Shown piece by piece: positions 5,691-40,514 of a DNA stretch of 64,000 nt. The notes below the pieces were generated by a model, which was given only the letters and a program-made list of their open reading frames with translations, had not been told where the DNA came from and did no database searches. The first letter of the stretch is position 1; each line of letters begins with the position of its first letter. The position numbers and the translations under genes were made by a program. This stretch comes from Patescibacteria group bacterium (GTDB taxonomy: Bacteria; Patescibacteriota; Minisyncoccia; GCA-002772825). Location: NCBI GenBank assembly GCA_024654625.1, contig JANLHB010000016.1:128137-192136 (forward strand), given 5' to 3'.

Positions 5691-5693
5691 TTT

Positions 5694-6011: not shown

Positions 6012-6015
6012 ATTT

Positions 6016-6648: not shown

Positions 6649-6652
6649 CGAT

Positions 6653-8383: not shown

Positions 8384-8388
8384 CCACC

Positions 8389-8577
8389 ATGGCTTACACA
8401 TTGGAAAAAATTGACGCGGAAAATTTTAAGCTTATCGAAAGCAAGTCGGCAACTTCGGTATTCAATATCAATGAGTTGAAGAAATTAAAAACGCAATTAG
8501 AAAAAGAGGTCACGAGAATTAATAGCGAGCTCGCCAGAGTCAATACAATCTTGGACGAGTACGCAAAACTACCATAA
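8389..8577 (+). CDS. Small coiled-coil protein
   Basis: 62 aa, charged and helical (KLKTQLEKEVTRINSELARVNTILDEY), packed between the neighbouring genes. Confidence 0.4.
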   Translation: MAYTLEKIDAENFKLIESKSATSVFNINELKKLKTQLEKEVTRINSELARVNTILDEYAKLP

Positions 8578-8579
8578 CC

Positions 8580-8786
8580 ATGCCAAACGATCCAAACGAA
8601 AACAGAAATCCGCTTGATCCGCAATTGGGACTCATTCTCACTCTGTTGAGAGATATCCCGATTTTGAATACGGTCCCGAGCGACCCGCCAAAGTTTCCGA
8701 TCGGATTCGCGCTCTATGACGACGGTGTAAATCGGAGGTTTTACATTTTCTTCAATGGCAACTGGCGATATGTAGCTCTCACTTAA
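8580..8786 (+). CDS. Small hypothetical protein
   Basis: 68-aa ORF with 2-4 nt gaps to its neighbours on the same strand. Confidence 0.4.
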   Translation: MPNDPNENRNPLDPQLGLILTLLRDIPILNTVPSDPPKFPIGFALYDDGVNRRFYIFFNGNWRYVALT

Positions 8787-8790
8787 ACAT

Positions 8791-10161: not shown

Positions 10162-10166
10162 CAGCT

Positions 10167-23089: not shown

Positions 23090-25210
23090 ATGAAAAATTT
23101 AAATAAATACGATATAGAATTTCTGATCGAGTGTTTAAAAAGCGGCAAGGAAATCCCAACAGAATATAAGTACGCGCTTTTTCCAACCAAGCAAAAAGAA
23201 TACGAGCTTGTTTATGCCGGGAAAATGCGAAAAGAGGATGTGCTGGCAGACACCGAGGAAGCCAAGCCAGTGCCGCTCCAAATCGAAAAAGTTTTTAATG
23301 GCAAGAAATATCCACTTTACTCCAAAGATTGGCACAACCTTTTGGTTTTTGGCGATAATCTTCAAATCCTTAAAACCTTTAATGAGAATAAGGACCTGCT
23401 CGTCAAAAATAAAATTAAGGGGAAAGTAAAACTGATTTATATTGATCCGCCATTTGCAACGGAAGATGATTTCAGAGGAAATGGTGGAGCGAAAGCATAT
23501 TCTGACAAAGCAAAAGGTGCTGAATTTGTTGAATTTTTGCGCCGCCGCTTAATAGTAGCAAAGGAAGTGTTGGCAGATGACGGTACAATTTGGGTTCATT
23601 TGGATCATCGCAAAGCAGAATACATAAAAGTTTTAATGGATGAAATTTTTCCAAGTTGTTATCTTAATACAATTTATTGGCGTAGTCAGGTGGCAAGGGG
23701 CGCAAAAGTTAATGCTGAATTTTTACCAAAAAGTTGCCAACAGATTTTAGTTTACAAAAAGCGCACTGATGCAAAGCCCTTGTGGGAAGCACCCAAAAGG
23801 GAAATTATTTTGACGGAAGAAGAAATTAAACAAGAAGGCAGTTATAAACAAGACGAAAAAGGAAATTACTTTAGAACATCGGACCCGGGATCATATTCAT
23901 TTGAAAGCCTGCTTGACTTTTACAAGCAAGGTCGCATTTATGTGAGCTATGGCGGTAAAGTGATTTTTGATAACAAAAAAAAGGAAGTAAAAACGACAAA
24001 AGGGAAAATCGGCATAAAGTATTATGCTGAAGGTTTGGGCGGCGGAAAGTATAAAATTATAAGGTCAATCGATAATATTTGGACGGATATACCAGGACTT
24101 GGAACGGTGCCATCAGAAGATACTGGATATCCAACACAAAAAGTTGAAACTCTTTTAGAGAGGATCGTAAGTTCAACAACAAACACGGGCGATTTGGTAA
24201 TGGATTTCTTTTCCGGGAGTGGAACAACGGCAATAGTCGCCGAAAAATTAGGTAGGCGTTGGGTTGCCTGTGATATCGGGAAGTTATCAATCTACACAAT
24301 TCAAAAGCGATTATTAGAGATAGATCGGGGCCGAGATTTGATCGACTTAAAGAAAAAATATGGTAAGCCGGCAAAATCTTTCGCCATCGTTACTTCGGGG
24401 CTTTATGATCTTGGAAAGATTTTTGCTCTACAAAAAGATGAATATACTCGCTTCGTGAAAGATTTATTTGAAATTGAGGAAACGAAGGTTACAAAAATAG
24501 GTGGTGTCGAAATCGATGGGAAGAAGCGAGAATTTTACGCGAAAATCTTTCCATATTGGGAACTGAAAAATGCCAGCGTTGATGAAAAGTATTTGCAGGA
24601 ATTACATAAGAGCATTGGCGGGAAAATTGATGAAAGATTTTACATAATCGCTCCCGCGAACAATGTAAATTTTATCAGCGATTATCACCAGATTGGCAAT
24701 GTTCGGTATTATTTTCTCAAAGTACCGTACCAGATCATTAAAGAATTGCACAAGGTTCAGTTTAAGAAGTTTCGACAGCCACAAAGCAAAAGCCAAATCA
24801 ATGATTTGGACGAGGCAATTGGTTTTCACTTTATTCGTCAGCCAGAAGTAAAATCAGAGGTTAAAAAGTTGAAAGATAAAATCGTTTTGAAAATCAAAAG
24901 ATTTGAGTCCGCATATTCACAGGACGAAACCGGCGAAAAACTCAAAAACTTTGAAAGCTTGGCAATGTTGCTTTTGGATTTAAATTATGACGGCGAAAAG
25001 TTTATGATGACAAACTACTTTTTCGCACATGATTTGCTTAATCATAAGTCAAGCGATCAGGAAGAAAGCGAGGAAGAAATTAAAATGGAATTAAAGAAAC
25101 AAAAAGAAATTATCAAAGAATTTCCGAGAAAAGATTGCGGTAAAGAAATTATGGCAATTTATGTTGATATTTACGGTAATGAATTTCGGGAAGTTTTTAA
25201 GGTTAAATAA
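23090..25210 (+). CDS. mod: Type III restriction-modification Mod subunit (beta-class N6-adenine/N4-cytosine DNA methyltransferase)
   Basis: Motif IV, LIYIDPPF (DPPF), lies N-terminal to motif I, DFFSGSGTTAIVAEKLGRRWVACD (FxGxG). This order is the beta-class arrangement, and the res gene follows immediately. Confidence 0.8.
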   Translation: MKNLNKYDIEFLIECLKSGKEIPTEYKYALFPTKQKEYELVYAGKMRKEDVLADTEEAKPVPLQIEKVFNGKKYPLYSKDWHNLLVFGDNLQILKTFNENKDLLVKNKIKGKVKLIYIDPPFATEDDFRGNGGAKAYSDKAKGAEFVEFLRRRLIVAKEVLADDGTIWVHLDHRKAEYIKVLMDEIFPSCYLNTIYWRSQVARGAKVNAEFLPKSCQQILVYKKRTDAKPLWEAPKREIILTEEEIKQEGSYKQDEKGNYFRTSDPGSYSFESLLDFYKQGRIYVSYGGKVIFDNKKKEVKTTKGKIGIKYYAEGLGGGKYKIIRSIDNIWTDIPGLGTVPSEDTGYPTQKVETLLERIVSSTTNTGDLVMDFFSGSGTTAIVAEKLGRRWVACDIGKLSIYTIQKRLLEIDRGRDLIDLKKKYGKPAKSFAIVTSGLYDLGKIFALQKDEYTRFVKDLFEIEETKVTKIGGVEIDGKKREFYAKIFPYWELKNASVDEKYLQELHKSIGGKIDERFYIIAPANNVNFISDYHQIGNVRYYFLKVPYQIIKELHKVQFKKFRQPQSKSQINDLDEAIGFHFIRQPEVKSEVKKLKDKIVLKIKRFESAYSQDETGEKLKNFESLAMLLLDLNYDGEKFMMTNYFFAHDLLNHKSSDQEESEEEIKMELKKQKEIIKEFPRKDCGKEIMAIYVDIYGNEFREVFKVK

Positions 25211-25215
25211 ACGCT

Positions 25216-27762
25216 ATGACAGAAGGCATTAAAATATACAAAACACAGGACTTGGTTTTGCAAGTGAAGCAAAATTATAATCCCGCCAAGCTCAATTTGA
25301 AAAAATGGGTTGATTTTATTGATGTACTTTGCGGCGATAGAGAGTTTCAAAAAGAAGCGATCAGGGATTCGGTTATTTTTCTTGCGTCTGGAGAATATAA
25401 CTCAATCGAAAGTTTAATTGAGGAAAACTTTAGAAAGAACGATGAACTACAGAAAAGATATAAAGATGTCCGTGACTATCAAAGAAATTTGCCATTACCC
25501 CATAAGCTTTCGGCTGTGATTGATTTGGCGACAGGGACAGGCAAAAGCTATGTTATTTATGGTATTGCGCAAATCGCGTTAGGACTTGGCTTGGTTGATA
25601 AGGTTCTGGTGCTTTGCCCATCGCTCACTATTGAGTCGGGCTTAAAAGAAAAGTTTGAGAAGCTTTCCGGGGATGACAAGATAAAGGCGACATTACCAGA
25701 TAATACCGTTTTCAAAAATCCGAGAATTATTGATGCAAACAGCACAATTAAAAATGGCGACATTTGCGTTGAAAATATCCATGCCGTTTATGAGCGGACC
25801 GGCTCATCAATAAATGACAGTTTGAAGAAAAACGGGGAGCGCGTTTTGGTTTTGAACGATGAAGTTCATCATGCCTACAATTCATCAAGCGAGCAGGATA
25901 TAAAAAAATGGAAAGCGTTTTTGCTGAGTCCCGATTTTAATTTCAAATATATTCTCGGTTTTACCGGCACGGCTTATATTGAAGATGAGTATTTTAATGA
26001 TGTTATTTATCGCTACTCAATCCGCGAAGCTGTCGATGATAAAGTAATCAAGTCGGTTGATTATGTTGCGAAAGACGAGAATATAGACAAAAACGAGAAA
26101 TTCCAAAAGATTTATGACAATCATGATGAATTTGTAAAAAAGTACCGGCTTATCAAGCCACTTACGATTTTAGTTACAAAAGATATTTCCAAAGCAAAAA
26201 CACTTCGGGAAGATTTGATTGACTTTTTGGAAAAGCGGGAAAAAATATCGCGCAAGGCGGTTGAAAAAAAGGTTTTGATTGTTACTTCGCATAAAGATCA
26301 CAAGAAAAATGTTTTGGAATTGAAAAATGTTGACGATAAGGATAATTCAGTTGAGTGGATTGTTTCCGTTTCTATGCTTACCGAGGGCTGGGATGTAAAA
26401 AATATTTTTCAAATCGTACCATGGGAGGATCGCGCTTTTAATTCAAAACTTTTAATTGCTCAGGTTTTAGGCCGAGGTCTGCGTATACCAGAAGAATATA
26501 AATCACCCCAGCCGAAGGTTAGGGTTTTCAATCATGACGCTTGGAGTCGGAACATTCGCGGCTTGGTTGATGAAATTTTAGAAATGGAAGTCCGTCTAAC
26601 GAGTGAGGTTTTAACTTCTGGAGATCGGGCGAAATATCACTTTGATTTATACACGATTGACTATGAAAAGCAGGAAAAGGCCGTTAAGGCGGAGAAAGAT
26701 ACGGAAGTTTTTGATTACTCGAAGGGGTATATAAATTTAGTTGCTCAAGTCGAACAGATAGAAAGAGAAACTGAATATGAGGATTTGAGTGGCGTTATCA
26801 AGTCAAAAACAACGGCGATTCAAAAAGAAGTTTTTGGTGTTGACGATGTGGTGGCCAAGATCGTTGAAACTTTCGAGACGAGAGATTTTGAGGCAAAACT
26901 TAGATTTCCAAAGGGTGAATACGAAAAAGAACACTTGCCGCCAGAGAATGAAATAAAAGAGATCGTCATAACCTCAATGCGGAAAGTCGGGATAAAAAGC
27001 GGGGTGTTGACAGAAGATAATGCAAACAGAATCTTCAAAGCGTTTCAAACCCTTTTCAGAGCAAGGGGATCGACAATTGTTTTGGAACGAACAGCAAACA
27101 AGCCGAAGTTAATCGGCACGAAACAACTTGAAAAAGAAAATGTTGCCGTTGGAGCGATCAAACACGGCTCGACGGTTTTCTATACCGAAAATTTCAAAGA
27201 CGAGTGTAAAAATGGAATGATCGATACCTTGCAAGACATAATCAGCGATGAAAATCTGCCGAGAAGCGCAAGCAAAGAAGTTAATCCTTATTGCTTCAAA
27301 ACGCCAGTCAATGTCGTTTTGACAAAACTTGAACCCGAAAGAAGATTTGTTGAAACTTTAGTCAGTCCTCACTTGTGCGAGAAGTTAGATGCTTGGATAA
27401 AATCCCGTGATATGGGATTTTACAGCGTTGAGTATTCGTGGAGAAAAGGTGAGCACCCAACTCAGGGGAGTTTTAACCCCGATTTCTTTATTAGGATTGG
27501 TGAAAAAATCGTTGTTGTTGAAATAAAATCTGACGGTGATGATTCGGATGAAAACAAGGCAAAATATCGTTGGGCGAAAAAACATTTTGAGGACTTAAAT
27601 AGTGAGTTGGCGGCCGCAAAAATCAAACAAAAATACTTTTTCCATTTCTTAAGCCCATCAAGCTATGTCGAATTTACAGAATACTTGTTCGATGGCAGAT
27701 TATTCAAGGGAGAATTTAGATCGGCACTTGAAGATTTGCTTGAAAAAAATCATAGTGAATAA
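25216..27762 (+). CDS. res: Type III restriction enzyme Res subunit (SF2 helicase plus C-terminal PD-(D/E)xK endonuclease)
   Basis: Helicase motif I DLATGTGKSYV, motif II LNDEVHHA (DEVH) and arginine-finger region AQVLGRGLR. C-terminal nuclease NPDFFIRIGEKIVVVEIKSD. Confidence 0.8.
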   Translation: MTEGIKIYKTQDLVLQVKQNYNPAKLNLKKWVDFIDVLCGDREFQKEAIRDSVIFLASGEYNSIESLIEENFRKNDELQKRYKDVRDYQRNLPLPHKLSAVIDLATGTGKSYVIYGIAQIALGLGLVDKVLVLCPSLTIESGLKEKFEKLSGDDKIKATLPDNTVFKNPRIIDANSTIKNGDICVENIHAVYERTGSSINDSLKKNGERVLVLNDEVHHAYNSSSEQDIKKWKAFLLSPDFNFKYILGFTGTAYIEDEYFNDVIYRYSIREAVDDKVIKSVDYVAKDENIDKNEKFQKIYDNHDEFVKKYRLIKPLTILVTKDISKAKTLREDLIDFLEKREKISRKAVEKKVLIVTSHKDHKKNVLELKNVDDKDNSVEWIVSVSMLTEGWDVKNIFQIVPWEDRAFNSKLLIAQVLGRGLRIPEEYKSPQPKVRVFNHDAWSRNIRGLVDEILEMEVRLTSEVLTSGDRAKYHFDLYTIDYEKQEKAVKAEKDTEVFDYSKGYINLVAQVEQIERETEYEDLSGVIKSKTTAIQKEVFGVDDVVAKIVETFETRDFEAKLRFPKGEYEKEHLPPENEIKEIVITSMRKVGIKSGVLTEDNANRIFKAFQTLFRARGSTIVLERTANKPKLIGTKQLEKENVAVGAIKHGSTVFYTENFKDECKNGMIDTLQDIISDENLPRSASKEVNPYCFKTPVNVVLTKLEPERRFVETLVSPHLCEKLDAWIKSRDMGFYSVEYSWRKGEHPTQGSFNPDFFIRIGEKIVVVEIKSDGDDSDENKAKYRWAKKHFEDLNSELAAAKIKQKYFFHFLSPSSYVEFTEYLFDGRLFKGEFRSALEDLLEKNHSE

Positions 27763-28417: not shown

Positions 28418-28948
28418 ATGCAATTTTTTAATATTTTCACCACGATCAGCCCTCAAGCGATAGAAGTCGCGCTCCTTTCGGTCGTGGCTATTTTATTAAT
28501 AGGGGTGATCCTGTCGATCAGCAAACTCACTACTGGATTTTTGAAAGCACTAACTCACCTGCGTGATAGCTTCCGAGAGGAAATACGATTCTCCATCCAA
28601 CCAAAAGTTATTGAGATGTCTTTAAGCGTGGAATCATTAGTTGAACTCGCCGTAGAGGTTTGGAGAATAGAGCAACGATTGGCAAAAGTTACTTCAGGAC
28701 TTACCGATATCCAGAAGAAAGGGCTTGAGAGTTCGGTCCAAAAGCTGAAGCGATACTTGGAAAAATACGATTTAGAAATCCGAGATTATACCAATCAAAA
28801 ATTCAACGAAGGCCTGAATTTGGATATTTTGTCAGTAGAAAAGGACCCGACAATTACCGAGCCGATAGTCAAAGAGACGGTTGAGCCAACGATCATGTGC
28901 AAAGGTCAGGTCGTGAAAAAAGCCAAAATCATACTCTTGAGCAATTAA
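28418..28948 (+). CDS. Membrane-anchored GrpE-like nucleotide-exchange-factor homologue
   Basis: N-terminal transmembrane segment (ALLSVVAILLIGVILSI) and a long helix. KGLESSVQKLKRYLEKYDLEIRDYTNQKFNEGLNLDI resembles the GrpE core motif G[VL]E..x.K.L...LEK.GVE.ID..G..FDPNLHEA. The terminal CKGQVVKKAKIILL resembles the GrpE C-terminus (GY.l.drvLRpAkV.V). Confidence 0.55.
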   Translation: MQFFNIFTTISPQAIEVALLSVVAILLIGVILSISKLTTGFLKALTHLRDSFREEIRFSIQPKVIEMSLSVESLVELAVEVWRIEQRLAKVTSGLTDIQKKGLESSVQKLKRYLEKYDLEIRDYTNQKFNEGLNLDILSVEKDPTITEPIVKETVEPTIMCKGQVVKKAKIILLSN

Positions 28949-28952
28949 ACCT

Positions 28953-31469
28953 ATGTCAAAACACAACGCGCAAAACATTCAAATCGGCATCGATTTGGGG
29001 ACGACAAACTCCGAGATCGCCATTAATAATAACGGCAATGTTGAGCTGGTGAAAAATGTCTTCGGAGACGAATATACCCCGTCCGTTTTTGGAATTGATA
29101 AAGCGAAAAACAAGGTGGTTGGAAAAAGAGCATACGAGAGGTTGTACAAGGATGCTTCGGAGGATGAATTTTCAAATAACAAAGCAGAGGTAAAGCGTTT
29201 AATGGGAACTTCGGAAACTGTACGCTTCCCGAGGATCAATCAAGAAATGACCCCTGAGGAAATCTCGGCGGAAATATTAAAGAGCCTCAAGGAAGATGTA
29301 TTGAGAAAGTACCCCGATTTTGAGACACGGACCGCCGTGATCACCATCCCGGCGTATTTTTCTACTCTGCAGGCAGAGGCGACCAAGAGAGCCGGCAATC
29401 TGGCGGGATTTGAGTATGCGGTATTGCTTCAAGAACCGATAGCGGCCGCAATGGCCTACGGGTTCATGAATGCGAAAAATGAGAACTGGATCATTTATGA
29501 TCTTGGCGGCGGTACTTTCGATGTCGCGCTTATCTCGTCAAAGGACGGAGCATTGTCAGTGCTTGGCCATAATGGCGATAACTTTTTAGGGGGAAAGGAT
29601 TTTGACTGGCTGATCGTGGACAAAGTTATCGTCCCCGCAATTTTAGAAAAACACGAAATAAAAGATTTCAATCGTGGCAATTCAAAATACAGAAGCGTGT
29701 TCGCAAAGCTGAAGTATATTGCCGAGAACGCGAAAATGTATTTGTCTCAATACGAAAAAACAAACCTTGAAATAGAGGGAATCGGAGATGATGACGATAG
29801 TAACGAAATTTATGTAACCGCTGAAATGACCCGTAAAGGATTTGAGCAACTCATAAAGCCGATGGTTGACCGAACAGTTGAGCTCGCTAAAGAGACAATC
29901 CAAGAGTCCGGGGTCAAACAATCGACTATTCACAAGATCATATTAGTAGGCGGTCCGACCCAAATCCCTTACATTAAAGACCGCTTGAATCGAGAATTTA
30001 AAATTACAGTCGATGCATCCGTAGACCCCTTGACGGTGGTTGCCCGCGGCGCATGCATATTTGCCGTCAGTCAGCGAATCCCCAAAGAATTCCTCAAGGA
30101 AAAGAAAGTGGCCGCTGGCGTGAAAACGCTGACGCTGAACTACGAATCGCTCACATCGGAAGAAGAAGTAACTGTGAGCGGTGTAGTCGAGCAACTGAAA
30201 AATTCAGATGATGAATATTATATTCAAATCCAAAGCGAGAGTGGATTCTATAGCGGATCGAAAATTAAGTTGAAGGGCGGCAAATTCTTCGACACGATTG
30301 CACTCGAACCGCACAAGACCAGCCTCTTCTGGGTTTACTTATTTGATAAGGATGGAAACTCTGTGCAAGTTGATCCCGATTCTTTCTCCATCACTCATGG
30401 ACTTTCCGTAACCGGCGCACCAATACCGCACTCTATCGGTGTTGCCGTAGCAAAAAGAGATATGAGCAGTGGCTTTGCTCTTACTGAAATGTTTGAGCCG
30501 TTCTTCGAAAAAAACAGCGTTCTGCCCCTACGGACCACCAAAACATATAAGACGGTAAAGAGATTGAAAAAGGGAGATACCGAAAATGCTTTGCCAATTA
30601 AGGTATACGAGGGAGAATCCGAAACACCAGACCGCAATCACATTATTTGCGACCTTAAGATCACGGGAGAAAATTTGCCGTATGACCTGCCAGACGGCAC
30701 CGAAGTGGAGATCAAGATAGAGGTCAATGAATCGAGAGAAGTAACGGTTGAAGCTTTTATTCCAACTATCGACTTATCTCTTAACGCGCGAGCCACAATC
30801 CACGCCGAAGATATTGATGTCAAGCAGATGGAGTCCGATCTCAATGCCCAACGGGAACGCATAAAAACCATTGAGGCGAACTGTACGGCGGAAGAAAAAG
30901 CAAAACTGGAAAACACTGTTCAATCAGTGAATACGAGCATAGGCAACGCCCACATCGATCAGGACGAAAAGCGGAAAGCGCACACACACCTGAAAGCTTT
31001 GAAAGTTAAGCTCGATCAGATCGAAAAAGCGAAAGAATTGCCGCAACTTACTAAAGAATTCAATGAGGGCATTGCTGATGTCCAGAAGGTCGTTGAAACA
31101 CTCGGCGATGAGAAAGAGAAGGGCATGAATAATGACCAGCTAAAAACGCTGAAAGAAGAAGGCGAAAGAGCTATCGAAAGTAAAGATAAATACTTACTCA
31201 TGCGAGTTAACGAACAGATCAAAGAGCTGGGCATACGGGTGGCATTGGCTAACCCGGCCATGTGGGTATACCACTTTGAGAAACTCACGACGGAAAACCA
31301 TGCTTTCCTAAGCGAGAAGGAGGCGAGCTATTACATTTCTAAAGGGAAACGCGCGATAGAACTGGGCGATGTCGATGAACTCAAGAGGTGCGTCCATAGT
31401 TTGATGCTTCTGCTCCCGCCAGAAGAACAGGAAGCGATCCGCGGCAATCTTTCCGGCATCACTCACTAA
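28953..31469 (+). CDS. Divergent Hsp70 (DnaK-family) paralogue of 838 aa, with an insertion between the nucleotide-binding and substrate-binding domains and an extended helical C-terminus
   Basis: IGIDLGTTNSEIAI (Hsp70 signature 1 region), DLGGGTFDVALI (signature 2) and ILVGGPTQIPYIKDRL (signature 3 region). A substrate-binding beta-domain-like stretch is IKVYEGESETPDRNHIICDLKITGENLPYDLPDGTEVEIKIEVNESREVTVEAF. About 150 extra residues separate the NBD and SBD. Confidence 0.85.
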   Translation: MSKHNAQNIQIGIDLGTTNSEIAINNNGNVELVKNVFGDEYTPSVFGIDKAKNKVVGKRAYERLYKDASEDEFSNNKAEVKRLMGTSETVRFPRINQEMTPEEISAEILKSLKEDVLRKYPDFETRTAVITIPAYFSTLQAEATKRAGNLAGFEYAVLLQEPIAAAMAYGFMNAKNENWIIYDLGGGTFDVALISSKDGALSVLGHNGDNFLGGKDFDWLIVDKVIVPAILEKHEIKDFNRGNSKYRSVFAKLKYIAENAKMYLSQYEKTNLEIEGIGDDDDSNEIYVTAEMTRKGFEQLIKPMVDRTVELAKETIQESGVKQSTIHKIILVGGPTQIPYIKDRLNREFKITVDASVDPLTVVARGACIFAVSQRIPKEFLKEKKVAAGVKTLTLNYESLTSEEEVTVSGVVEQLKNSDDEYYIQIQSESGFYSGSKIKLKGGKFFDTIALEPHKTSLFWVYLFDKDGNSVQVDPDSFSITHGLSVTGAPIPHSIGVAVAKRDMSSGFALTEMFEPFFEKNSVLPLRTTKTYKTVKRLKKGDTENALPIKVYEGESETPDRNHIICDLKITGENLPYDLPDGTEVEIKIEVNESREVTVEAFIPTIDLSLNARATIHAEDIDVKQMESDLNAQRERIKTIEANCTAEEKAKLENTVQSVNTSIGNAHIDQDEKRKAHTHLKALKVKLDQIEKAKELPQLTKEFNEGIADVQKVVETLGDEKEKGMNNDQLKTLKEEGERAIESKDKYLLMRVNEQIKELGIRVALANPAMWVYHFEKLTTENHAFLSEKEASYYISKGKRAIELGDVDELKRCVHSLMLLLPPEEQEAIRGNLSGITH

Positions 31470-31470
31470 T

Positions 31471-33105
31471 ATGCCCAAAACACTCAAAAACAATTCATAC
31501 CACATTCTGGGACTTGATACTTCTGTAAGCCAGAGGGATGTTTTGAAGCGATCAAAGGAAATTATCAATCGCCTCAAGATTGACGATTTACCAGTGTATG
31601 ATCTGGACTTGGATATTTTTGAGGATTTCCGAACGGAGGAGTCGGTAAAGGAAGCGGTCCAAAAATTATCCGCGCCCAAAAAGAGAATCAAAGAATATTT
31701 CTTCTGGTTTCAAATTGCGGATAGCGTTGACGAGCAAGCGGCCGGCCTTCTCAAGAGCAAGAATTATGCCGAAGCGAGCCGAGTTTGGGAGCACAACTCG
31801 GAGAAAGATACTGCGAAGTCGTTTCTATACAAAAAGAACCTTGCTATTTTGCACTGCCTGCTACTTTTCAAAAAGAACAGCAAAACAAATCTCACGCAAT
31901 CGATGAAGATTTGGAAAGAACTTCTTGACTCCGATAAGTTTTGGAACGCATTCGCCAAAGTATATAAGCTTCATGACGAACTTGGCACAAGCCAGGAGAT
32001 CATAGATGAGTTTAAATCAAACGCCATCTCTTATGTGGCGGATATTTATACTGAACTCGGGCATTTCCACAATGATAATTCGTATGTCGCGGAAAGCTCC
32101 AAGATTCTTGAAGCCAAAGGGGCGGCAACAGAAAAAACTGTCCTGAATCCAATCTATCAGAGCATCGCAGAGGTGGTGGATCAATTGGAATCGTTGAAGG
32201 TTAGCGAGGACGGGATGATTGATAAAAAGGAAGCGCAGACGATCAAGACGCTGATCGGGAAACTTCAAGGTGAGTTCAACAAGCTTATTGAGATAGGCCT
32301 GTACGAAGATAGCCAATCCAAAGCGATCAGGGATAGAGCCGCAAACGCCATTCGAGTCGTTGTGCTGGATTTGCATAATAATCTCAGCGAGACAGACAAG
32401 GCAATTGCATTAATGAATGTTGCATTAAAGATTTCCGGCACCGCCGGCCTTGAGTCAAAGGTAAAACATGATATCCGGGTACTCGAAGAAACAAAGAAAA
32501 ATGCTGGCCTTATTGCTCCTGTTGCCAATCTGGTAGCCGAAGAAAAATATGAAGAGGCGTTGAGACAGATTGAATCAGATAGGAAAAAGTTCAGTGGCAA
32601 TGCCGAATTGCAGGAATTTTACGATGGACAGAAAAAGCTCTGCATAAGCATGCTTGCACTAAATAAATACAAACAAGCCCGGGATTATTTTGATAAACAG
32701 CAAGAAGATAAAGCAAAGCCGTTATTTGATGAAGCGGGCAAGCTGATTCATGACAACATTAATCTCTTCAACTTTAATAATAAAGTTATTGACGAGATGG
32801 TTGAGGAGATTAAATCCAACATGGCAAAAGTGAATCTCAATAACTTGAGTCAATTTGACGAATACAGAAATTCTTACATCAATCTTGCGAAAGAAAAATT
32901 TGAGGGCCAGCTTGAGCAGGGAGCCTTTATCGTGCTGATCGACGCTCACATCTATGGCGGCTTAACTGGATTCATGAAAGGGGCGCGGCAAAAGAACAAT
33001 GTGGCCAATATTTTATATACCCTCGGATGGATAACTGTCTGGTTTTATGGGATCGGCCTGATTTTCTTCATAGCCGGCTGGGTTTACAAAAATCGAAATA
33101 CATAA
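31471..33105 (+). CDS. J-domain-like co-chaperone homologue lacking the HPD tripeptide, with a long helical region and two C-terminal transmembrane segments
   Basis: The N-terminus NSYHILGLDTSVSQRDVLKRSKEIINRLKIDD aligns with J-domain helices I-II (Y.iLGv....s..ei.kaYrkl..k.HPD), but IDD replaces HPD. The C-terminus (ILYTLGWITVWFYGIGLIFFIAGWVY) is hydrophobic. Confidence 0.5.
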   Translation: MPKTLKNNSYHILGLDTSVSQRDVLKRSKEIINRLKIDDLPVYDLDLDIFEDFRTEESVKEAVQKLSAPKKRIKEYFFWFQIADSVDEQAAGLLKSKNYAEASRVWEHNSEKDTAKSFLYKKNLAILHCLLLFKKNSKTNLTQSMKIWKELLDSDKFWNAFAKVYKLHDELGTSQEIIDEFKSNAISYVADIYTELGHFHNDNSYVAESSKILEAKGAATEKTVLNPIYQSIAEVVDQLESLKVSEDGMIDKKEAQTIKTLIGKLQGEFNKLIEIGLYEDSQSKAIRDRAANAIRVVVLDLHNNLSETDKAIALMNVALKISGTAGLESKVKHDIRVLEETKKNAGLIAPVANLVAEEKYEEALRQIESDRKKFSGNAELQEFYDGQKKLCISMLALNKYKQARDYFDKQQEDKAKPLFDEAGKLIHDNINLFNFNNKVIDEMVEEIKSNMAKVNLNNLSQFDEYRNSYINLAKEKFEGQLEQGAFIVLIDAHIYGGLTGFMKGARQKNNVANILYTLGWITVWFYGIGLIFFIAGWVYKNRNT

Positions 33106-33109
33106 ATTT

Positions 33110-33808
33110 ATGTCTGACAAAGAACGATTAAAATTTGATCTTGATTTTTTAGAGAAAGAACAGGAAAAACCTGCCGATGCAAAGCCGGCAGAGGTTCACA
33201 AACCGGCCGAGACGACCGGCGAGAAGTTACCCCTTATCGAATACATAAAAGCGATTTTTAAGGACTTCCCGGCATTTTGCAATAAATATCTTCGGGTAAA
33301 AAATCCGCCCTATCTGTTCTTTATTATCTGGGCTGTTGGAGTGGCAACTGCTATTGATCGAATGAGCGACTACGGGGGCAGTACTTGGCTCGAAGTTTGG
33401 GCTATCGTTTTAATCGGTGGACTCGTAGCGGGGTATTTGCAATATTGGATCGGTGGCGCAATTTATCACTTGCGGGTCAAGTGGTCGAAAGGCGGCGACA
33501 ATTATGATGCATCCAGAAACATCAATATGTTTTCTGGGATACCAGTTGCGATCGCCAGCATTGGCTCCTTACTTCTGAATACAATTGTTTATGGGAATGA
33601 TTACTTTAAATCCGGCGAGGGCAATTCTTTGGATATACTGTTCTTCTTTGTAATAGTCACCGCGATAGCATACTCCATTCGATTAAGCTACAAAGGAGTC
33701 ATGTTTATTCAGCAAACAGAGAAAACCAGAGCCATGATTTGGTTTGTCGTATTGCCGGCAATTTTCTATGTTTTGATATTTTCGGCCGCAATTTTTAATA
33801 AACTATGA
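33110..33808 (+). CDS. Polytopic membrane protein (Yip1-like topology) with the N-terminal MSDKERLKFDLDFLEKE motif
   Basis: 232 aa with four to five predicted transmembrane helices after a charged N-terminus. The N-terminal peptide is shared with the next gene. Confidence 0.55.
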   Translation: MSDKERLKFDLDFLEKEQEKPADAKPAEVHKPAETTGEKLPLIEYIKAIFKDFPAFCNKYLRVKNPPYLFFIIWAVGVATAIDRMSDYGGSTWLEVWAIVLIGGLVAGYLQYWIGGAIYHLRVKWSKGGDNYDASRNINMFSGIPVAIASIGSLLLNTIVYGNDYFKSGEGNSLDILFFFVIVTAIAYSIRLSYKGVMFIQQTEKTRAMIWFVVLPAIFYVLIFSAAIFNKL

Positions 33809-34416
33809 GCGATAAAGATAAAAAGTTAGATTTTGATCTGAGGTTTCTGGACGAGGAATCGCCTAAACCGAAACAAGCGATTCGAAAGGATCGCGCAAAA
33901 CCACAATCAGAGACCGCCAGCTCAATTAACTGGAATTGGAAAACAATATCGATAATTGCCGGCGTAATCATAGTGATAATTTGGATCGCTTCTTCGGAAG
34001 ATAGCACTACGCCAACATCAACTTATACGCCGCCGAGCACTAATCAAGTCAGAAACATATCTGCCGATGACGATAGTGTTGAATACGGAGAATATAGATG
34101 CTCGCGATACCATTATGATAAAGCTGTTGCGCTGTCTCCGAGCGAAAGCGAGCAAACCTTAAATAGCGCACAATTTTCTATGGATACTCGAGCCAGCGAA
34201 TTGGAGCGATTGCAAAGAGAAATCGAGTACAGTGATGTCAACGATTATTCGTCACAATGGGAAATCGATGACTACAACGAAAAAGTAAATACATATAATT
34301 ACAAACTCACTTCTTACAAACGAGATGCCACTGCACTTGACTCTCGCATCGATAGGTTTAATGCTCAAGTAGCGGTCCACAATAATTATCTCACTCAAAA
34401 TTGCACACCAAGATAA
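33805..34416 (+). CDS. Single-pass membrane protein with an extracytoplasmic domain and the N-terminal MSDKDKKLDFDLRFLDEE motif
   Basis: 203 aa with one transmembrane segment (ISIIAGVIIVIIWIA). The start overlaps the upstream stop (ATGA), and it shares the N-terminal motif with 33110-33808. Confidence 0.55.
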   Translation: MSDKDKKLDFDLRFLDEESPKPKQAIRKDRAKPQSETASSINWNWKTISIIAGVIIVIIWIASSEDSTTPTSTYTPPSTNQVRNISADDDSVEYGEYRCSRYHYDKAVALSPSESEQTLNSAQFSMDTRASELERLQREIEYSDVNDYSSQWEIDDYNEKVNTYNYKLTSYKRDATALDSRIDRFNAQVAVHNNYLTQNCTPR

Positions 34417-35501
34417 AAAATATGTCAGCACCAACCAAACCAATTTTATACAACAGCTTCAAGATTAAAGAAGGACTCACGATTAAAAATCGTGTAGAGA
34501 AGGTATTCTTTACCGAAGTATATCAGTTGTCAGATGACAGCTACTTTTACTTACTTTTGAACATTAAGCCGAATGAGATTGTAGACAGAGGTAAAAAATA
34601 CGAACTTATAAAAGTACAGCATGGCGGCAACGAATATGTCGGTATTATTACCAAAGAACATTCTCACGAAAAGGTCACTCAGATTATTGAGGATCTGACG
34701 GTTATGCGAGGTTTTGATTGTGTTGCCGGCATGAAGGAATTGAAAGCCCTTCTAATCAATGATGTAATCAGCCCACTTTTGCACCCTGAAAAATTCAAGA
34801 AGTTTAAATTATCGATTCCGAACGGAATTTTGCTCTTCGGACCGCCCGGCTGTGGCAAAACTTTTATTGTTAGAAAACTCGCGGAAGAAATGAGTTACAA
34901 TTTTATTGAGCTAAAACCCTCTGATGTGGCTACGCCTTATGTGCATGGCGCCGTTTCGAATATTGCCAAGGTTTTCGAAATGGCGAAGTTAAAAGCACCC
35001 TCAATTATTTTTATAGATGAGATCGAGGGATTGCTTCCCAAGAGAGAAGAATTGAGCTCCAGCGCGGACATTAAGAAAGAGGAGATCAATCAATTCTTAA
35101 TGGAGTTGAATGATGCCGGCAATAACAAGATTTTGGTTGTCGGAGCGACAAATCGTCCTCATATGATCGACACCGCAATCTTGCGATCAGGGAGAATGGA
35201 CAAGCGAATCTATGTGCCGCCGCCAGATTTTGAGGCGCGCAATGAATTATTCAAAATTTCTTTGTCCGGCCGGCCGTATGATAAAAATATCGACTTCGAA
35301 AAGTTGGCCAAGCTAACAGAAAACTTTGTAAGTTCCGATGTAGAGTTGATTGTTACGGAAGCGGCTCGTGCCGCTGTAGCCGGGAACATGGCTCTCATTG
35401 ATGAAAAACTAATCCGCACAATTATAGAAAGATTCACTCCCTCTGTGACAGAGGAGCAGGTTGAATATTACGAGCAGTTCAGAAATCTTGAGCGTTCGTA
35501 G
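34401..35501 (+). CDS. AAA+ ATPase (classical AAA clade)
   Basis: Walker A GILLFGPPGCGKTF, Walker B IIFIDEIEGL and second region of homology GATNRPHMIDTAILRSGRMDKRIYV. The start overlaps the upstream gene. Confidence 0.85.
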   Translation: MHTKIKNMSAPTKPILYNSFKIKEGLTIKNRVEKVFFTEVYQLSDDSYFYLLLNIKPNEIVDRGKKYELIKVQHGGNEYVGIITKEHSHEKVTQIIEDLTVMRGFDCVAGMKELKALLINDVISPLLHPEKFKKFKLSIPNGILLFGPPGCGKTFIVRKLAEEMSYNFIELKPSDVATPYVHGAVSNIAKVFEMAKLKAPSIIFIDEIEGLLPKREELSSSADIKKEEINQFLMELNDAGNNKILVVGATNRPHMIDTAILRSGRMDKRIYVPPPDFEARNELFKISLSGRPYDKNIDFEKLAKLTENFVSSDVELIVTEAARAAVAGNMALIDEKLIRTIIERFTPSVTEEQVEYYEQFRNLERS

Positions 35502-35810
35502 TTAAACCTTTTTGAGCGATTTGAAAAATACCGCCGCCACTACCAAATCAACAACCGACCAAAGGAAGTGACCAAAGTAAAATGGATTGATTGGGTTAAA
35601 GATAATTGCGACAACTATCATGACCCACATCCATTTTTTATTTTTATCTAAATGAAAGGTATACGCAGAGTAAGCCGCAGTGCCGAAAATCAAAAATTTC
35701 AAGAGCTGATAAAAAAAATACGGCCAGATTGGAATCATCGCGATCAACAGCGCTACGGCCGATAGTTTGGAGAATAAGTTTTTATAGTGTGTCTGTTCGG
35801 CGGTTATCAT
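35502..35810 (-). CDS. Small polytopic membrane protein
   Basis: 102 aa with three hydrophobic helices. It is convergent with the AAA gene. Confidence 0.45.
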   Translation of the reverse strand: MITAEQTHYKNLFSKLSAVALLIAMIPIWPYFFYQLLKFLIFGTAAYSAYTFHLDKNKKWMWVMIVVAIIFNPINPFYFGHFLWSVVDLVVAAVFFKSLKKV

Positions 35811-36317: not shown

Positions 36318-37337
36318 ATGCAATTTAAAGAAGCAATCGATCAATTTTCTAACTGGCGCAGGTTTAAGGTCAAAGTTCAGACCGTAAAAGGTTACGATCA
36401 GACACTGAGACAATTCTGCCTCTACCTTCGAAACCCCCAGATCGAGGACATATCAATCCATCATGTCATGGACTATTTGAATGGCATGAAAGAACTGGGA
36501 TGGGACCAAAATAGCTTTGTCGGGAAGTGCATGGCTCTGCGCAAGTTCTTTGAATTTTATCGACTTCAGAACTATGCAGTTCTCGATGAGAACCTGATTC
36601 CGATACCCAGCAAAGAACATAAACTTCCAAGGGTTGCAAAAGAGGCGGATTATAGGCAACTGATTGCCGCCATACCCGTAAAGACCACCGATCCTCGTCA
36701 TATCCGAAACTTAGCCATCGTGAATTTGTTATGGGACACCGGCGCGAGAAACGGAGAGGTGCTTGCATTAGATGTAGATGATCTGGACATGGAGAGACGC
36801 CGAGCGGTTATCAATACTGAGAAATCAAAAGGAAGGCGGCCGTTTCGGGAATTATTCTGGACACAATCAACCAACGACAGTATATGGGCTTGGTTGAAAA
36901 AAAGAGAACACCTAAAAAAGACAATGGCGTTCAAGGAACCAGATGCTCTCTTTCTCTCGATATGCGCCGGCCAGCACGATACGACAGGCAGACGATTCAC
37001 TATCCGAGGAGTCGGTGAAATGTTGAGGCGTTATTCAAACAGAGCTAAGTTGCCCTACTTGAACGCTCATAGTTTTCGACACCATATGGGTCACCACATT
37101 ATAAAGAGCGGCGGATCAAGCGCCGATGTGATGAATATACTTGGCCACTCGTCGGTCCAGAGCTCGACAATTTACACGATGATGACTGATCACGAATTGG
37201 AAAAGAGATATCGAGGATTCATGAACGATACTCCGACAAAAGAAAGAGCAGAGAGGATAGAGAGAGCAGAAAGAGTTGCGAGAGTCGAAAACTCCGTAGA
37301 GAAATTTGCGAGACCCGTCGTCCCGTTGCCAGATTAA
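36318..37337 (+). CDS. Tyrosine recombinase (XerC/XerD-like phage integrase family)
   Basis: SAM-like N-terminal core-binding domain. Catalytic residues: WDTGARNGE (Arg), HSFRHHMGHH (H-x-x-R) and LGHSSVQSSTIYT (Tyr). Confidence 0.85.
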   Translation: MQFKEAIDQFSNWRRFKVKVQTVKGYDQTLRQFCLYLRNPQIEDISIHHVMDYLNGMKELGWDQNSFVGKCMALRKFFEFYRLQNYAVLDENLIPIPSKEHKLPRVAKEADYRQLIAAIPVKTTDPRHIRNLAIVNLLWDTGARNGEVLALDVDDLDMERRRAVINTEKSKGRRPFRELFWTQSTNDSIWAWLKKREHLKKTMAFKEPDALFLSICAGQHDTTGRRFTIRGVGEMLRRYSNRAKLPYLNAHSFRHHMGHHIIKSGGSSADVMNILGHSSVQSSTIYTMMTDHELEKRYRGFMNDTPTKERAERIERAERVARVENSVEKFARPVVPLPD

Positions 37338-37686: not shown

Positions 37687-38343
37687 ATGAAAGGTGATAT
37701 TTTTCATATTATAAACAGGGGAGTGGAAAAAAGAAAAATCTTTTTAACAGATGAAGATTATTTACGTTTCATTCATAATTTAAAGGATTTTAATTGTAGT
37801 GATCTAGTTACAGCTTCATATCATGATAGGCGAAAATATGAACAGTCGTTGCTTGAGAGACGGTTAAATACAAAATTAGACAATGAATTAGTGGATATAT
37901 TGTGTTGGTGCCTTATGCCAAATCATTACCATATACTTGTTCAGGAAAAAATAGATAAGGGGGTCAGTATGTTTTCTAAAAAAATAAGCAGCGGATATAC
38001 TCAATCTTTTAATTTAAAATATAAGAGATCGGGAGTTTTGTTTCAAGGTCGGTCAAAAATTATTCAAATAGAAAATGATGAGCATCTTCTATTTATCCCT
38101 TATTACATTTTTTCTAATCCCATTAAACTAATAAAAAAGAATTGGAAAGATTATGGTTTGGATAACGCGGAAAAAGCAGTTGAATTCTTAGAAAGCTATA
38201 AGTGGTCAAATTATTCAATTGTGACAAATAATAAGGACTATCCTTTCGTAGGTGACAGAGATCTGTTTTTTGAAATCTTTGATACTAATAAGGAGCAGTT
38301 TAGAAAAGATTTTATAACCTGGCTATGCGATAGCCAGAAATAA
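37687..38343 (+). CDS. IS200/IS605-family Y1 (HuH) transposase / REP-associated tyrosine transposase (RAYT)
   Basis: CWCLMPNHYHILVQ contains the HuH motif (HYH) typical of the IS200-like TnpA fold. The gene is flanked by REP-like palindromes. Confidence 0.75.
   Translation: MKGDIFHIINRGVEKRKIFLTDEDYLRFIHNLKDFNCSDLVTASYHDRRKYEQSLLERRLNTKLDNELVDILCWCLMPNHYHILVQEKIDKGVSMFSKKISSGYTQSFNLKYKRSGVLFQGRSKIIQIENDEHLLFIPYYIFSNPIKLIKKNWKDYGLDNAEKAVEFLESYKWSNYSIVTNNKDYPFVGDRDLFFEIFDTNKEQFRKDFITWLCDSQK
38321..38337. repeat. REP-like palindrome GGCTATGCGATAGCCAG (right end, inside the 3' end of the RAYT gene)
   Basis: Exact copy of the 37655-37671 element. Confidence 0.6.
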
Positions 38344-39002: not shown

Positions 39003-40514
39003 ATGTTTAATTTTAGAAAAAAATTACCAATAGGCGTGGACATAAGCGACTCTTCTGTTGAAGTCTTAAGACTCAATGGGAAGAGAGAGATTGTTAATCA
39101 CGCTAGAATTATTTTACCTGAAGGCATAGTTGAGAATGGCAAAATAATAGATAAAGAAAAGCTTGTCTTAAGTTTAAAGGAAGTTTTAGAAAAAGCTGGC
39201 GGTAGAGACGTCGTATCTTCGTCAAAAAAGATAAAGGTTGTTATAAGCTTGCCCGAATCTAAGGTTTTTGTCCGTAATTTTGAGTTACCCATTGATCTGA
39301 AGAATGATGATTTGAAACAAGAGATAATGAGTGAGATAAATAAGATCGCCCCATCCGGATTGGATACTGTTTATTGGGATTACGTTTTGGTCTCTACCAA
39401 AAAATCTCATCATATATTATTTGTCGCTGTGCCTAAATATCTAGTAGATGAATACAAAGAAGTGGCTGAACTTGCCGGTCTTGAAGTTATAATAATAGAT
39501 GTTGAAGCGTCTTCTCTTGGGCGCGCTCTTTTGAAACCCTTATTTTTGAAAGCGAATTCTATGGTGGTGGACATTGGCACAAGGACAAGCGACATAAGTA
39601 TCTTTGGTCGTGATGGATTGCTTCATCTTTCTGTTTCAGCGCCCGTTGCCGGAAGTCAGTTAACTCAAGCTGTAATGGATAAATTAGCCAAAAGTCGCGA
39701 GGAATCCGAAGAATTAAAAAGAACTTTTGGTTTTAACGATAATGGAGAAGGGCATCAAATTTCTGTTATATTGAAAAATTCTTTTGAAGAGGTTTTGGAT
39801 AAAATAAAAAAAGCCATTAATTATTATCAAAATAATGTTAATGGAAAAGTGGAGGAGATTATTTTAGCGGGAGGGTCATCTTCTTTACCCGGTTTAGATG
39901 AATATTTAGAAAAGAGTCTTGGTGTAAAAGTTAAGATAGGCAATCCTATTGAAAAGTTAAAAAATGGGCAGATCTTAAATAATAGAGAAAAACAGTCAGT
40001 TCTTTTTTCCAACGTCATAGGATTGGCTCTAAGGGGTCTTGATGATTCTTGGAGGGGGATAAATTTATTGCCTAAAGTATCAGGAAGCAGTATCAAAAGA
40101 GAAGTGATTTTAAAATATTTACTTAGTTTGCTCGTTGGTATCTTAATTTTAGCGTCTTTGGGGTATACTTTTTATTCTCATCGTACAAAATCGCAAAATC
40201 AAGACGTTGTTCCACTTGTAGAAAATTCTCTTATTTCAGCTACGAGCACTGATATGATAAGTGATGAGATTGATGGTATGTCAATACAAATAGAGGAAGA
40301 GATTATAAAAGAAGAAGTAATTATAACAAACACACCCACAGGCTGGCTTAATGTAAGAAGTGGCCCTGGGACTAGTTATGCTCAAATAACTAAAGTCTAT
40401 CCAAAAGAAACCTACTCATTGATAGAAGAGAAAGACGATTGGTATAAGATAACAATAGATGAAAAAACTGAAGGGTGGGTCATCTCTGACTACGCAACAA
40501 TAAAGAGCAATTAA
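39003..40514 (+). CDS. pilM: Type IV pilus assembly PilM-PilN fusion protein with a C-terminal SH3b domain
   Basis: PilM-like actin-fold N-terminus (KKLPIGVDISDSSVEVLRL). PilN motif GINLLPK with a transmembrane segment (LLSLLVGILILASLGY). C-terminal SH3_3-like GWLNVRSGPGTSYAQITKVYPKETYSLIEEKDDWYKITIDEKTEGWVISDY. Confidence 0.7.
   Translation: MFNFRKKLPIGVDISDSSVEVLRLNGKREIVNHARIILPEGIVENGKIIDKEKLVLSLKEVLEKAGGRDVVSSSKKIKVVISLPESKVFVRNFELPIDLKNDDLKQEIMSEINKIAPSGLDTVYWDYVLVSTKKSHHILFVAVPKYLVDEYKEVAELAGLEVIIIDVEASSLGRALLKPLFLKANSMVVDIGTRTSDISIFGRDGLLHLSVSAPVAGSQLTQAVMDKLAKSREESEELKRTFGFNDNGEGHQISVILKNSFEEVLDKIKKAINYYQNNVNGKVEEIILAGGSSSLPGLDEYLEKSLGVKVKIGNPIEKLKNGQILNNREKQSVLFSNVIGLALRGLDDSWRGINLLPKVSGSSIKREVILKYLLSLLVGILILASLGYTFYSHRTKSQNQDVVPLVENSLISATSTDMISDEIDGMSIQIEEEIIKEEVIITNTPTGWLNVRSGPGTSYAQITKVYPKETYSLIEEKDDWYKITIDEKTEGWVISDYATIKSN

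Follow-up and report, generated by a model that had tools for sequence, protein, structure and literature searches.

A probably tail-anchored protein with a divergent, HPD-less J-domain encoded beside an atypical Hsp70 in a mobile chaperone gene cassette of bacteria and archaea

The 64,000-nt stretch of contig JANLHB010000016.1 analysed here (the window), from a Patescibacteria group bacterium, carries at 31471-33105 on the plus strand an open reading frame (ORF) for a 544-amino-acid protein with a J-domain at its N-terminus, referred to below as the J-like protein. It is the third gene of a cassette that reads, in order, GrpE-like, Hsp70, J-like, Yip1, transmembrane/coiled-coil protein, AAA+ ATPase and DUF6804. 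The six genes from GrpE-like to AAA+ lie on the plus strand with spacers or overlaps of only a few bases, and the J-like ORF starts one base past the stop codon of an 838-amino-acid Hsp70 gene, which agrees with the pairing to the adjacent Hsp70 proposed in an earlier, sequence-only reading of this DNA. The cassette genes and the domains of the J-like protein are as follows.

28418-28948, plus strand: GrpE-like membrane-anchored protein of 176 amino acids, putative nucleotide exchange factor (Pfam GrpE, E 9.1e-4)
28953-31469, plus strand: atypical Hsp70 of 838 amino acids (Pfam HSP70, E 1.3e-84, in two stretches; NCBIfam DnaK, 7e-84)
31471-33105, plus strand: J-like protein of 544 amino acids, predicted to be tail-anchored (ORF; AlphaFold2 model with a predicted local distance difference test score, pLDDT, of 86.9)
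31492-31704, plus strand: divergent J-domain, residues ~8-78 of the J-like protein (profiles, AlphaFold2, Foldseek, hhalign)
31576-31638, plus strand: extended loop between helices II and III of the J-domain, residues 36-56 (KIDDLPVYDLDLDIFEDFRTE), in place of the His-Pro-Asp (HPD) loop
31723-32910, plus strand: all-helical solenoid domain resembling tetratricopeptide repeats (TPR), residues ~85-480 of the J-like protein (AlphaFold2)
33010-33084, plus strand: predicted C-terminal transmembrane segment of the J-like protein, residues ~514-538 (LGWITVWFYGIGLIFFIAGWV) (hydropathy)
33110-33808, plus strand: Yip1-domain multi-pass membrane protein of 232 amino acids (Pfam Yip1, E 2.7e-11)
33805-34416, plus strand: single-pass membrane protein of 203 amino acids with a coiled coil, p203 (hydropathy, synteny)
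34401-35501, plus strand: classical-clade AAA+ ATPase, 366 amino acids counted from a TTG codon (Pfam AAA, E 4.6e-35; AAA_lid_3)
35502-35810, minus strand: DUF6804 small membrane protein of 102 amino acids (Pfam DUF6804, E 9.9e-22)

Residues ~8-78 of the J-like protein form a genuine but very divergent J-domain that lacks HPD, a result on which the family-level tests converge. The Pfam DnaJ model (PF00226) matched the N-termini of 15 of 28 non-redundant relatives, all below threshold and with a best E of 2.3e-4, and no other Pfam family recurred more than twice among these 28 N-termini. A profile of the N-terminal 100 residues of the family, searched against PDB sequences, gave 12 matches at E≤10, all 12 of them J-domains (best E 0.023). 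Alignment of the family profile by hhalign to a set of J-domains, composed of E. coli DnaJ, DjlB and DjlC taken from the genome and six further sequences, gave a probability of 92.8% (E 3.9e-7, 69 columns). The window protein by itself does not reach the curated PF00226 threshold; homology is nonetheless likely, and the individual E-values are weak, as expected of a helical domain this short (70 residues). The family to which it belongs is large, with 2183 representatives of 50%-identity clusters recovered at E≤1e-3 in an exhaustive profile search and 519 matches among the scored candidates of a 90%-clustered database, mostly from Patescibacteria, and its members are labelled either "hypothetical" or "TPR repeat protein".

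The predicted structure points the same way. The full-length AlphaFold2 model (pLDDT 86.9 overall, 82-95 across residues 1-80) has a short helix I (residues 9-13), antiparallel helices II and III (21-36 and 56-66) and a helix IV (69-77), the four helices of the J fold, and a Foldseek search with a model of residues 1-100 returned J-domains for almost all of the top 48 PDB matches, at a probability of at most 0.99 and a template modelling (TM) score to the target of at most 0.68. The sequence-only reading had recognised a J-domain likeness in helices I and II, and proposed DnaJ profile searches and structure prediction as checks; both checks came out in its favour, at the level of the family in the first case, and the likeness was upheld and extended, since it spans all four helices rather than the first two.

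The loop between helices II and III has 19 residues in the J-like protein versus about nine in DnaJ, so the register equivalent to HPD is not unique, and the window protein is without His-Pro-Asp in all three candidate registers. In the ungapped/HMMER register, K36-I37-D38 falls on H-P-D; in the hhalign register, eight residues are deleted and Y43-D44-L45-D46 falls on Y32-H33-P34-D35; and a third register sets L40-P41-V42 at HPD, with the near-invariant P41 (110/116 relatives) on the proline. Among the 116 relatives aligned without gaps, none has HPD at the aligned loop positions in either the HMMER or the hhalign register. The absence of HPD noted from the sequence is therefore true under every register, while the placement of KIDD at the HPD position is correct for the ungapped/HMMER register and is one of three options instead of the sole one.

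Conservation across these 116 relatives is stricter in the loop than in the helices, with I37, P41, Y43, D46, R54, T55 and E56 near-invariant. Position 43 is Tyr in 111 and Tyr or Phe in all 116, and D46 is kept in 115; D38 (91/116) and K36 (59/116) are well below these values, and position 42, Val in the window protein, is Glu in 85. Judged by this alignment, the conservation of Y43 and D46 favours the hhalign register.

In the canonical pair, HPD contacts R167, Q378, L391 and P419 of DnaK, and D35 of the motif hydrogen-bonds R167 and Q378 (PMC8215388). The cassette Hsp70s were compared with E. coli DnaK, the sequence of which was verified from NC_000913.3. Five aligned orthologs all keep the catalytic residues D8, K70 and E171, the DLGGGTFD phosphate loop and the equivalent of DnaK T199, and lack the R167 and Q378 that receive HPD. 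The window Hsp70 has V157 at the R167 position and F370 at the Q378 position; among the 43 readable partner Hsp70s, the former position is occupied by Val in 37, Ile in five, Ala in one and Arg in none, and the latter, in the 20 partners where a pattern match allowed it to be read, is Phe in 11 and Tyr in nine. Across the family, in the partners read, the canonical contact between HPD and R167/Q378 is gone on both sides, and the two genes are still linked. This loss points to a co-evolved, probably orthogonal interface, and it makes activation of these Hsp70s by host DnaJ proteins unlikely. A few distant members of the J-like family have HPD or HPE at positions 40-42; that these mark the true motif is not supported, as the partner Hsp70 still has Val at the R167 position in the three loci of this kind that were examined (L028, L055 and L056).

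The window Hsp70 is atypical in its build as well. An insertion of ~110 residues, beta-rich, lies between the nucleotide-binding domain (NBD) and the beta subdomain of the substrate-binding domain (~385-490), at the normal site of the hydrophobic interdomain linker, and the counterpart of the DnaK acidic loop (206-217) is shorter. In place of the usual lid tail, the C-terminus carries a helical extension of ~230 residues (~610-838), which ends in a conserved ...GDVEELKRC...LLLP...NLSGITH tail. By analogy with the binding of EEVD by TPR domains, the Hsp70 could be gripped at this LSGITH tail by the TPR-like domain of the J-like protein.

That domain, residues ~85-480, is all-helical and confidently modelled, with a faint likeness to TPR solenoids. 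Full-length Foldseek searches against the PDB gave weak TPR-like matches only (E≥0.017, TM-score 0.12-0.19), the best of them to the TPR/J co-chaperone P58IPK (E 0.017, TM-score below 0.2), and the Pfam TPR_2 match was weak as well (E 0.11). Many positions in the solenoid are invariant, including VLDLHNNL, RDRAA and G323-T324, which suggests a specific binding surface and not a generic repeat. Towards the C-terminus, a segment was called transmembrane where its Kyte-Doolittle 19-residue mean exceeded 1.6, and only residues ~514-538 pass this threshold (maximum 1.82), with six residues beyond them to the C-terminus. At 484-502, where conserved Asp, Ser and His occur, the mean reaches no more than 1.37, and AlphaFold2 confidence is low (~55) around the C-terminal segments. 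Membrane anchoring at the C-terminus, as foreseen from the sequence, is thus backed by one predicted hydrophobic segment, and the double transmembrane anchor also foreseen is rejected on hydropathy; by this measure, the C-terminus more likely forms one tail anchor or, at the very most, a re-entrant hairpin.

The remaining cassette proteins are of chaperone and membrane types. The GrpE-like protein has one N-terminal transmembrane segment (residues 17-35, hydropathy 2.87) and a GrpE-like C-terminal half. Its Pfam GrpE match is below the gathering score, and GrpE was not recovered when the family profile was searched against PDB sequences; PF01025 matches in 27 of 38 orthologs (best E 2.8e-9), and on these matches the first cassette gene is taken to encode a predicted divergent GrpE. 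The AAA+ ATPase, whose true start may be slightly downstream of the TTG, has a Walker A motif (GPPGCGKT), a Walker B motif (IIFIDEIE) and an arginine-finger region and no transmembrane segment, and its closest NCBIfam models are Cdc48 (D2), PAN and FtsH at ~1e-55. The p203 protein has a transmembrane segment at residues 47-65 and a probably extracytoplasmic coiled-coil domain with two Cys; its orthologs sit between the J-like and AAA genes in most bacterial loci. The DUF6804 gene, on the opposite strand in the window, abuts the AAA stop codon without a spacer; elsewhere it usually closes the cassette on the same strand. It lies directly after the AAA gene or within a few hundred bases of it in ~17 loci and near the cassette in ~10 more, and in several loci (L005, L028-L030, L055) it is upstream of the GrpE-like gene. 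A second J-protein was looked for with Pfam and NCBIfam, and no J-domain signal was found in the other cassette proteins; one elsewhere in the genome is possible.

The cassette membrane proteins have in common a short N-terminal tag, "LDxDLxFLD", with the consensus K-x-L-D-[FI]-D-L-x-F-L-D, as in the tag-bearing peptide KKLDFDLRFLDEE. In the window, it is found in the N-terminus of the Yip1 protein, MSDKERLKFDLDFLEKE, as L7-K-F-D-L-D-F-L-E15 (nt 33128-33154), and in that of the 203-amino-acid protein, MSDKDKKLDFDLRFLDEE, as L8-D-F-D-L-R-F-L-D16 (nt 33826-33852). A loose form of the pattern occurs in the first 60 residues of 48 of the 3589 ORFs across all loci, and 46 of these 48 are linked to a cassette: they immediately follow a J-like gene or an AAA gene, except for one that stands just before the GrpE-like gene. 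The tagged proteins include kinds without homology to one another, among them Yip1 proteins, RDD proteins with a zinc ribbon, transmembrane/coiled-coil proteins and proteins of 71, 200 and 447 amino acids; further examples, among many others, are at 9607-9822 and 10909-11583 of locus L003, 1361-1858 and 2949-3839 of L022, and 5610-6953 of L043. Behind the tag come a Lys/Pro-rich linker and a transmembrane segment, in this order, so the tag should face the cytoplasm, and we infer that it is a candidate docking peptide to which a soluble cassette protein would bind.

To map the distribution of the cassette, each GTDB species was scanned through a single genome, which gave 47 loci; ORFs were called in these and in further loci and searched with the window proteins. 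The order GrpE-like, Hsp70, J-like, (Yip1), (one or two transmembrane/coiled-coil proteins), AAA+, (DUF6804) was found in ~45 loci, essentially every locus with enough flanking sequence. The GrpE-like gene is the first in most complete loci, the AAA+ gene is present in nearly all that extend far enough, and one to three small membrane-protein genes usually stand between the J-like and AAA+ genes; archaeal and some bacterial cassettes consist of the four-gene core only. The hosts include many classes of Patescibacteria, Omnitrophota, Bdellovibrionales, Gamma- and Alphaproteobacteria, Bacteroidota, Akkermansia, Woesearchaeota and Thaumarchaeota. The sole clear exception in synteny is a distant J-like homolog (32% identity) at 6278-7843 of locus L046, from a gammaproteobacterial metagenome-assembled genome, and within this 17.7-kb locus no cassette Hsp70, GrpE-like or AAA gene was detected. 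L032, L052 and L054 carry fragmented cassettes, with Hsp70, J-like or AAA genes split over several ORFs; these are apparent pseudogenes or assembly frameshifts. IMG/VR contained a single locus, L057 (IMGVR_UViG_3300037483_001825, 4949-12318), with the full seven-gene cassette. That the J-like gene is a phage or plasmid gene was considered and rejected, the family being absent from PLSDB and INPHARED and present in this one IMG/VR locus. The cassette is horizontally mobile and widely spread over bacteria and archaea.

In the window, three consecutive restriction systems immediately precede the cassette, and an integrase and a transposase follow it downstream:

19469-20974, minus strand: Mrr-like (Mrr_cat) endonuclease
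21033-22754, minus strand: GmrSD type IV endonuclease
23090-25210 and 25216-27762: type III methyltransferase and restriction enzyme
36318-37337: tyrosine integrase
37687-38343: IS200-like Y1 transposase

The window cassette thus lies in a defence island, which is probably carried on an integrated element. Beyond the cassette region lie the housekeeping genes PilM, NUDIX, GatB and GAPDH. The PilM-like protein (39003-40514; PilM_2, E 1.3e-40) has a transmembrane segment and a C-terminal bacterial SH3 domain (SH3_3, E 2e-13). Elsewhere in the window, three giant ORFs at 60-5690, 10167-15893 and 52037-59035 (1876, 1908 and 2332 amino acids) may encode giant secreted or surface proteins, and from 8 to 16 kb the AT skew is strongly positive (0.19-0.28).

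At other loci, the neighbours include SMODS+SLATT, VapE, ArdC, Cas4-like nucleases, UvrD, Zeta toxin, AbiEii, Fic, restriction-modification genes, serine recombinases and TraG. Among Pfam families in the 150 directly flanking ORFs, Resolvase/Recombinase (6/5) is the most frequent, followed by N6_N4 methylase, TraG, phage integrase, Fic and HerA (three each), AbiEii and SNase (two each) and several restriction enzymes. The surroundings of the cassette are a variable, mobile region rich in defence genes, which is guilt by association and not proof.

Taken together, these observations give a slightly better than even chance to the reading that the J-like protein is a dedicated co-chaperone and membrane scaffold of a self-contained, mobile Hsp70 machine. 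In such a machine, the loop of the J-like protein (I37, P41, Y43, D46, R54-T55-E56) would form with V157 and F370 of the Hsp70 a co-evolved, more hydrophobic interface, and this rebuilt interface would still couple the J-like protein to the Hsp70 cycle while being insulated from host DnaK and DnaJ. A cassette that passes between bacteria and archaea would be well served by an interface orthogonal to the host chaperones. The solenoid and the tail anchor would keep the Hsp70 on the inner side of the membrane, next to the tagged membrane proteins, whose "LDxDLxFLD" tag may dock on the Hsp70 substrate-binding domain, the solenoid or the N-domain of the AAA+ protein, and the AAA+ ring would unfold or extract material captured by the Hsp70. 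The weakest step is the last one, in which the cassette would serve conflict with phages or mobile elements through the control of tagged membrane effectors. Because of the genomic company, we lean towards such a role at a little short of an even chance. The more specific proposal is that the seven-gene cassette represents a new class of membrane-acting anti-phage or anti-mobile-element system, found in the candidate phyla radiation, Proteobacteria, Bacteroidota and DPANN/Thaumarchaeota, in which the orthogonal Hsp70, with its own GrpE and a J-domain able to work in the absence of the HPD-R167 contact, and the AAA+ protein would check or activate exchangeable effectors (Yip1, RDD and transmembrane/coiled-coil proteins) recognised by their tag; it is doubtful at present and is offered tentatively.

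Several results weigh against this picture. For the J-domain itself, the window J-like protein alone found no match with Pfam DnaJ (PF00226) at E≤1, and none in NCBIfam or PADLOC; phmmer of this protein against PDB sequences returned unrelated proteins only; and the J-domain scores that were obtained are all sub-threshold or profile-based, with Foldseek E-values of at least 0.11. For the interface, several HPD registers fit, so the contact residues proposed from the alignments are guesses, and the ~110-residue insertion at the linker site together with the shortened acidic loop suggests that the allostery of this Hsp70 may differ altogether. For mobility and defence, tblastn against PLSDB plasmids and INPHARED phages gave no match to the J-like family; only about one fifth of the flanking ORFs have mobile or defence domains; Pfam and PADLOC found no nuclease, toxin or signalling domain in the cassette proteins; and PADLOC-DB v2 has no model specific to the cassette, with no match for the GrpE-like, J-like and Yip1 proteins and noise only for the Hsp70 and p203. 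The match of the AAA+ protein to PADLOC IetA (3.5e-32) is generic, since Cdc48, PAN and FtsH score higher.

The first group of these results would be expected if the N-terminus were a small helical bundle that resembles a J-domain by chance and the protein a TPR-like membrane protein, for which the pLDDT of 70.7 of the isolated model of residues 1-100 could also be cited. Such a coincidence is very improbable, as four independent tests converge on J-domains only, the hhalign comparison among them at E 3.9e-7, and as the strict linkage to an Hsp70 gene, and usually to a GrpE-like gene, over ~45 loci is the company expected of a J-protein. A weightier account, credible though less likely than the co-chaperone reading, is the recruiting or regulatory adaptor of the sequence-only reading. 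Here the J fold would have lost its catalytic competence and would do no more than tether the Hsp70 to the membrane or damp its activity, like the HPD-less Pam16/Tim16 of the mitochondrial import motor, with the Hsp70 ATPase driven by substrate alone or by host J-proteins. HPD is found in none of the 116 close relatives, neither L-P-V (40-42) nor K-I-D (36-38) is a conservative replacement for it, and a large non-J helical domain with a membrane anchor fits a scaffold; moreover, in all canonical pairs tested so far, stimulation disappears together with HPD, which counts against the co-chaperone reading as well and makes an inert J-like domain possible (PMC8215388). However, the cassette offers no bona fide J-protein that could be regulated in the manner of Pam16, activation by host DnaJ is unlikely for an Hsp70 without R167 and Q378, the cassette is present in archaeal lineages, and the loop is conserved more strictly than the helices, as expected of an active interface. 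The loss of R167/Q378 in the Hsp70 and the conserved loop of the J-like protein, both read from alignments, are explained by a non-canonical but activating interface no less well than by an inert adaptor, and the proposal of the sequence-only reading that Hsp70 is bound without canonical stimulation of ATP hydrolysis is one of these two possibilities.

A different question is what the machine as a whole would be for. ClpG/ClpK, small Hsps and FtsH paralogs are the cargo of transmissible islands for heat resistance and protein quality control, and the cassette may likewise be a transferable module for membrane-protein quality control or stress tolerance, with the tagged membrane proteins as its adaptors or clients. 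We rate this as possible, at about one chance in three. All of the soluble components are of chaperone type (Hsp70, GrpE-like, J-like and an AAA+ of the Cdc48/FtsH/PAN clade), the cassette has no toxin, nuclease or signalling domain, and its commonest neighbours are recombinases, which mark any mobile cargo. On the other hand, the window cassette stands between three restriction systems and an integrase, the neighbours at other loci include SMODS+SLATT, AbiEii, Zeta toxin and restriction-modification genes, the variable membrane proteins with one tag look like an exchangeable effector slot, and pseudogenised copies of the cassette exist.

The contact of HPD with R167 is treated as the universal switch by which a J-protein fires Hsp70 (PMC8215388). 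Here, a natural family of ~2,200 clusters at 50% identity is without HPD, the 43 partners read are without R167, and the pair is still genetically locked together in bacteria and archaea, which makes the J-like/Hsp70 pair an experiment of nature on whether other chemistry can restore the coupling of J-proteins to Hsp70. Such pairs may also supply chaperone pairs without host cross-talk. Bacterial DnaK derivatives have been termed largely unexplored "dark matter" in a 2026 review, and the cassette gives shape to a part of it in the form of a membrane-tethered Hsp70/GrpE/J/AAA+ operon with tagged partners (PMC13580251). If the defence reading is true, a chaperone-driven mechanism would be added to prokaryotic immunity, for example in Patescibacteria and Woesearchaeota.

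J-protein/Hsp70 systems themselves are known, and the cassette is a variant of them. No description of it was found in the literature searched, in which subscription journals were incompletely covered, so that an earlier description is possible. Hsp70 homologs do occur in prokaryotic conflict systems, namely CnuD of CoCoNuT (PMC10542128) and the EACC1-protease/DnaK-like fusions (PMC12642450). These modules differ in having McrBC-type GTPases, HEPN RNases or proteases as partners and no GrpE-like, J-like or AAA+ component, and CnuD has degenerate ATPase motifs whereas those of the cassette Hsp70 are intact.

Cooperation of an Hsp70, a J-protein and a nucleotide exchange factor with an AAA+ unfoldase is familiar from the DnaK-ClpB/Hsp104 disaggregase (PMC4436881, PMC3413357). 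The cassette AAA+ differs in being a single-ring protein of the classical clade, of ~360 amino acids, with neither an M-domain nor a second AAA ring, and the cassette system is tethered to the membrane and encoded as one operon. For the tag, the model is provided by HscA, which recognises the short motif LPPVK on its client IscU. The HscA/HscB/IscU system also resembles the cassette in that a specialised Hsp70 has its own J-protein (PMC8215388), although HscB has HPD, HscA keeps R167, the system is soluble and its client is IscU, and tag binding in the cassette is hypothetical.

A membrane-tethered arrangement is found in the motor of the mitochondrial presequence translocase, which combines mtHsp70, the GrpE-type Mge1 and the HPD-less J-like Pam16/Tim16 (PMC3806816, PMC8605242). 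With Pam16/Tim16, the J-like protein shares a J fold without HPD. Pam16, however, forms a heterodimer with a true HPD-bearing J-protein (Pam18/Tim14), for which the cassette has no counterpart; the two systems have no evolutionary link beyond the J fold, there is no recognisable translocase channel here, and an AAA+ protein is added.

The closest parallel is found in E. coli, where a specialised Hsp70, HscC, adjoins the class C J-proteins DjlB and DjlC at the membrane (PMC8215388). In DjlB and DjlC, a J-domain at the N-terminus is followed by a long helical stretch and by a tail anchor at the C-terminus, and the J-like protein has the same build. The comparison with these proteins suggested by the sequence-only reading therefore stands for architecture and falls for homology. 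An hhalign comparison of the family profile with DjlC, J-domain included, gave a probability of 0.4%, so orthology was rejected and the J-like protein was not filed as a DjlB/DjlC ortholog. DjlB and DjlC also keep HPE (SFHPETDPQG and LCHPETDPQG; L006, E. coli K-12, 677415-681663), which the J-like protein is without. This HPE is a natural functional variant, in which the Asp of HPD is conservatively replaced. HscC keeps the equivalent of R167, where the window Hsp70 has V157, and at 556 amino acids it is shorter than the 838-amino-acid window Hsp70 with its insertion and extension, the NBDs being 32% identical; the region shown of the hscC locus has no genes for GrpE-like, AAA+ or tagged membrane proteins. 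With these differences, HscC and DjlB/DjlC are the nearest functional analogue of the J-like/Hsp70 pair of the cassette.

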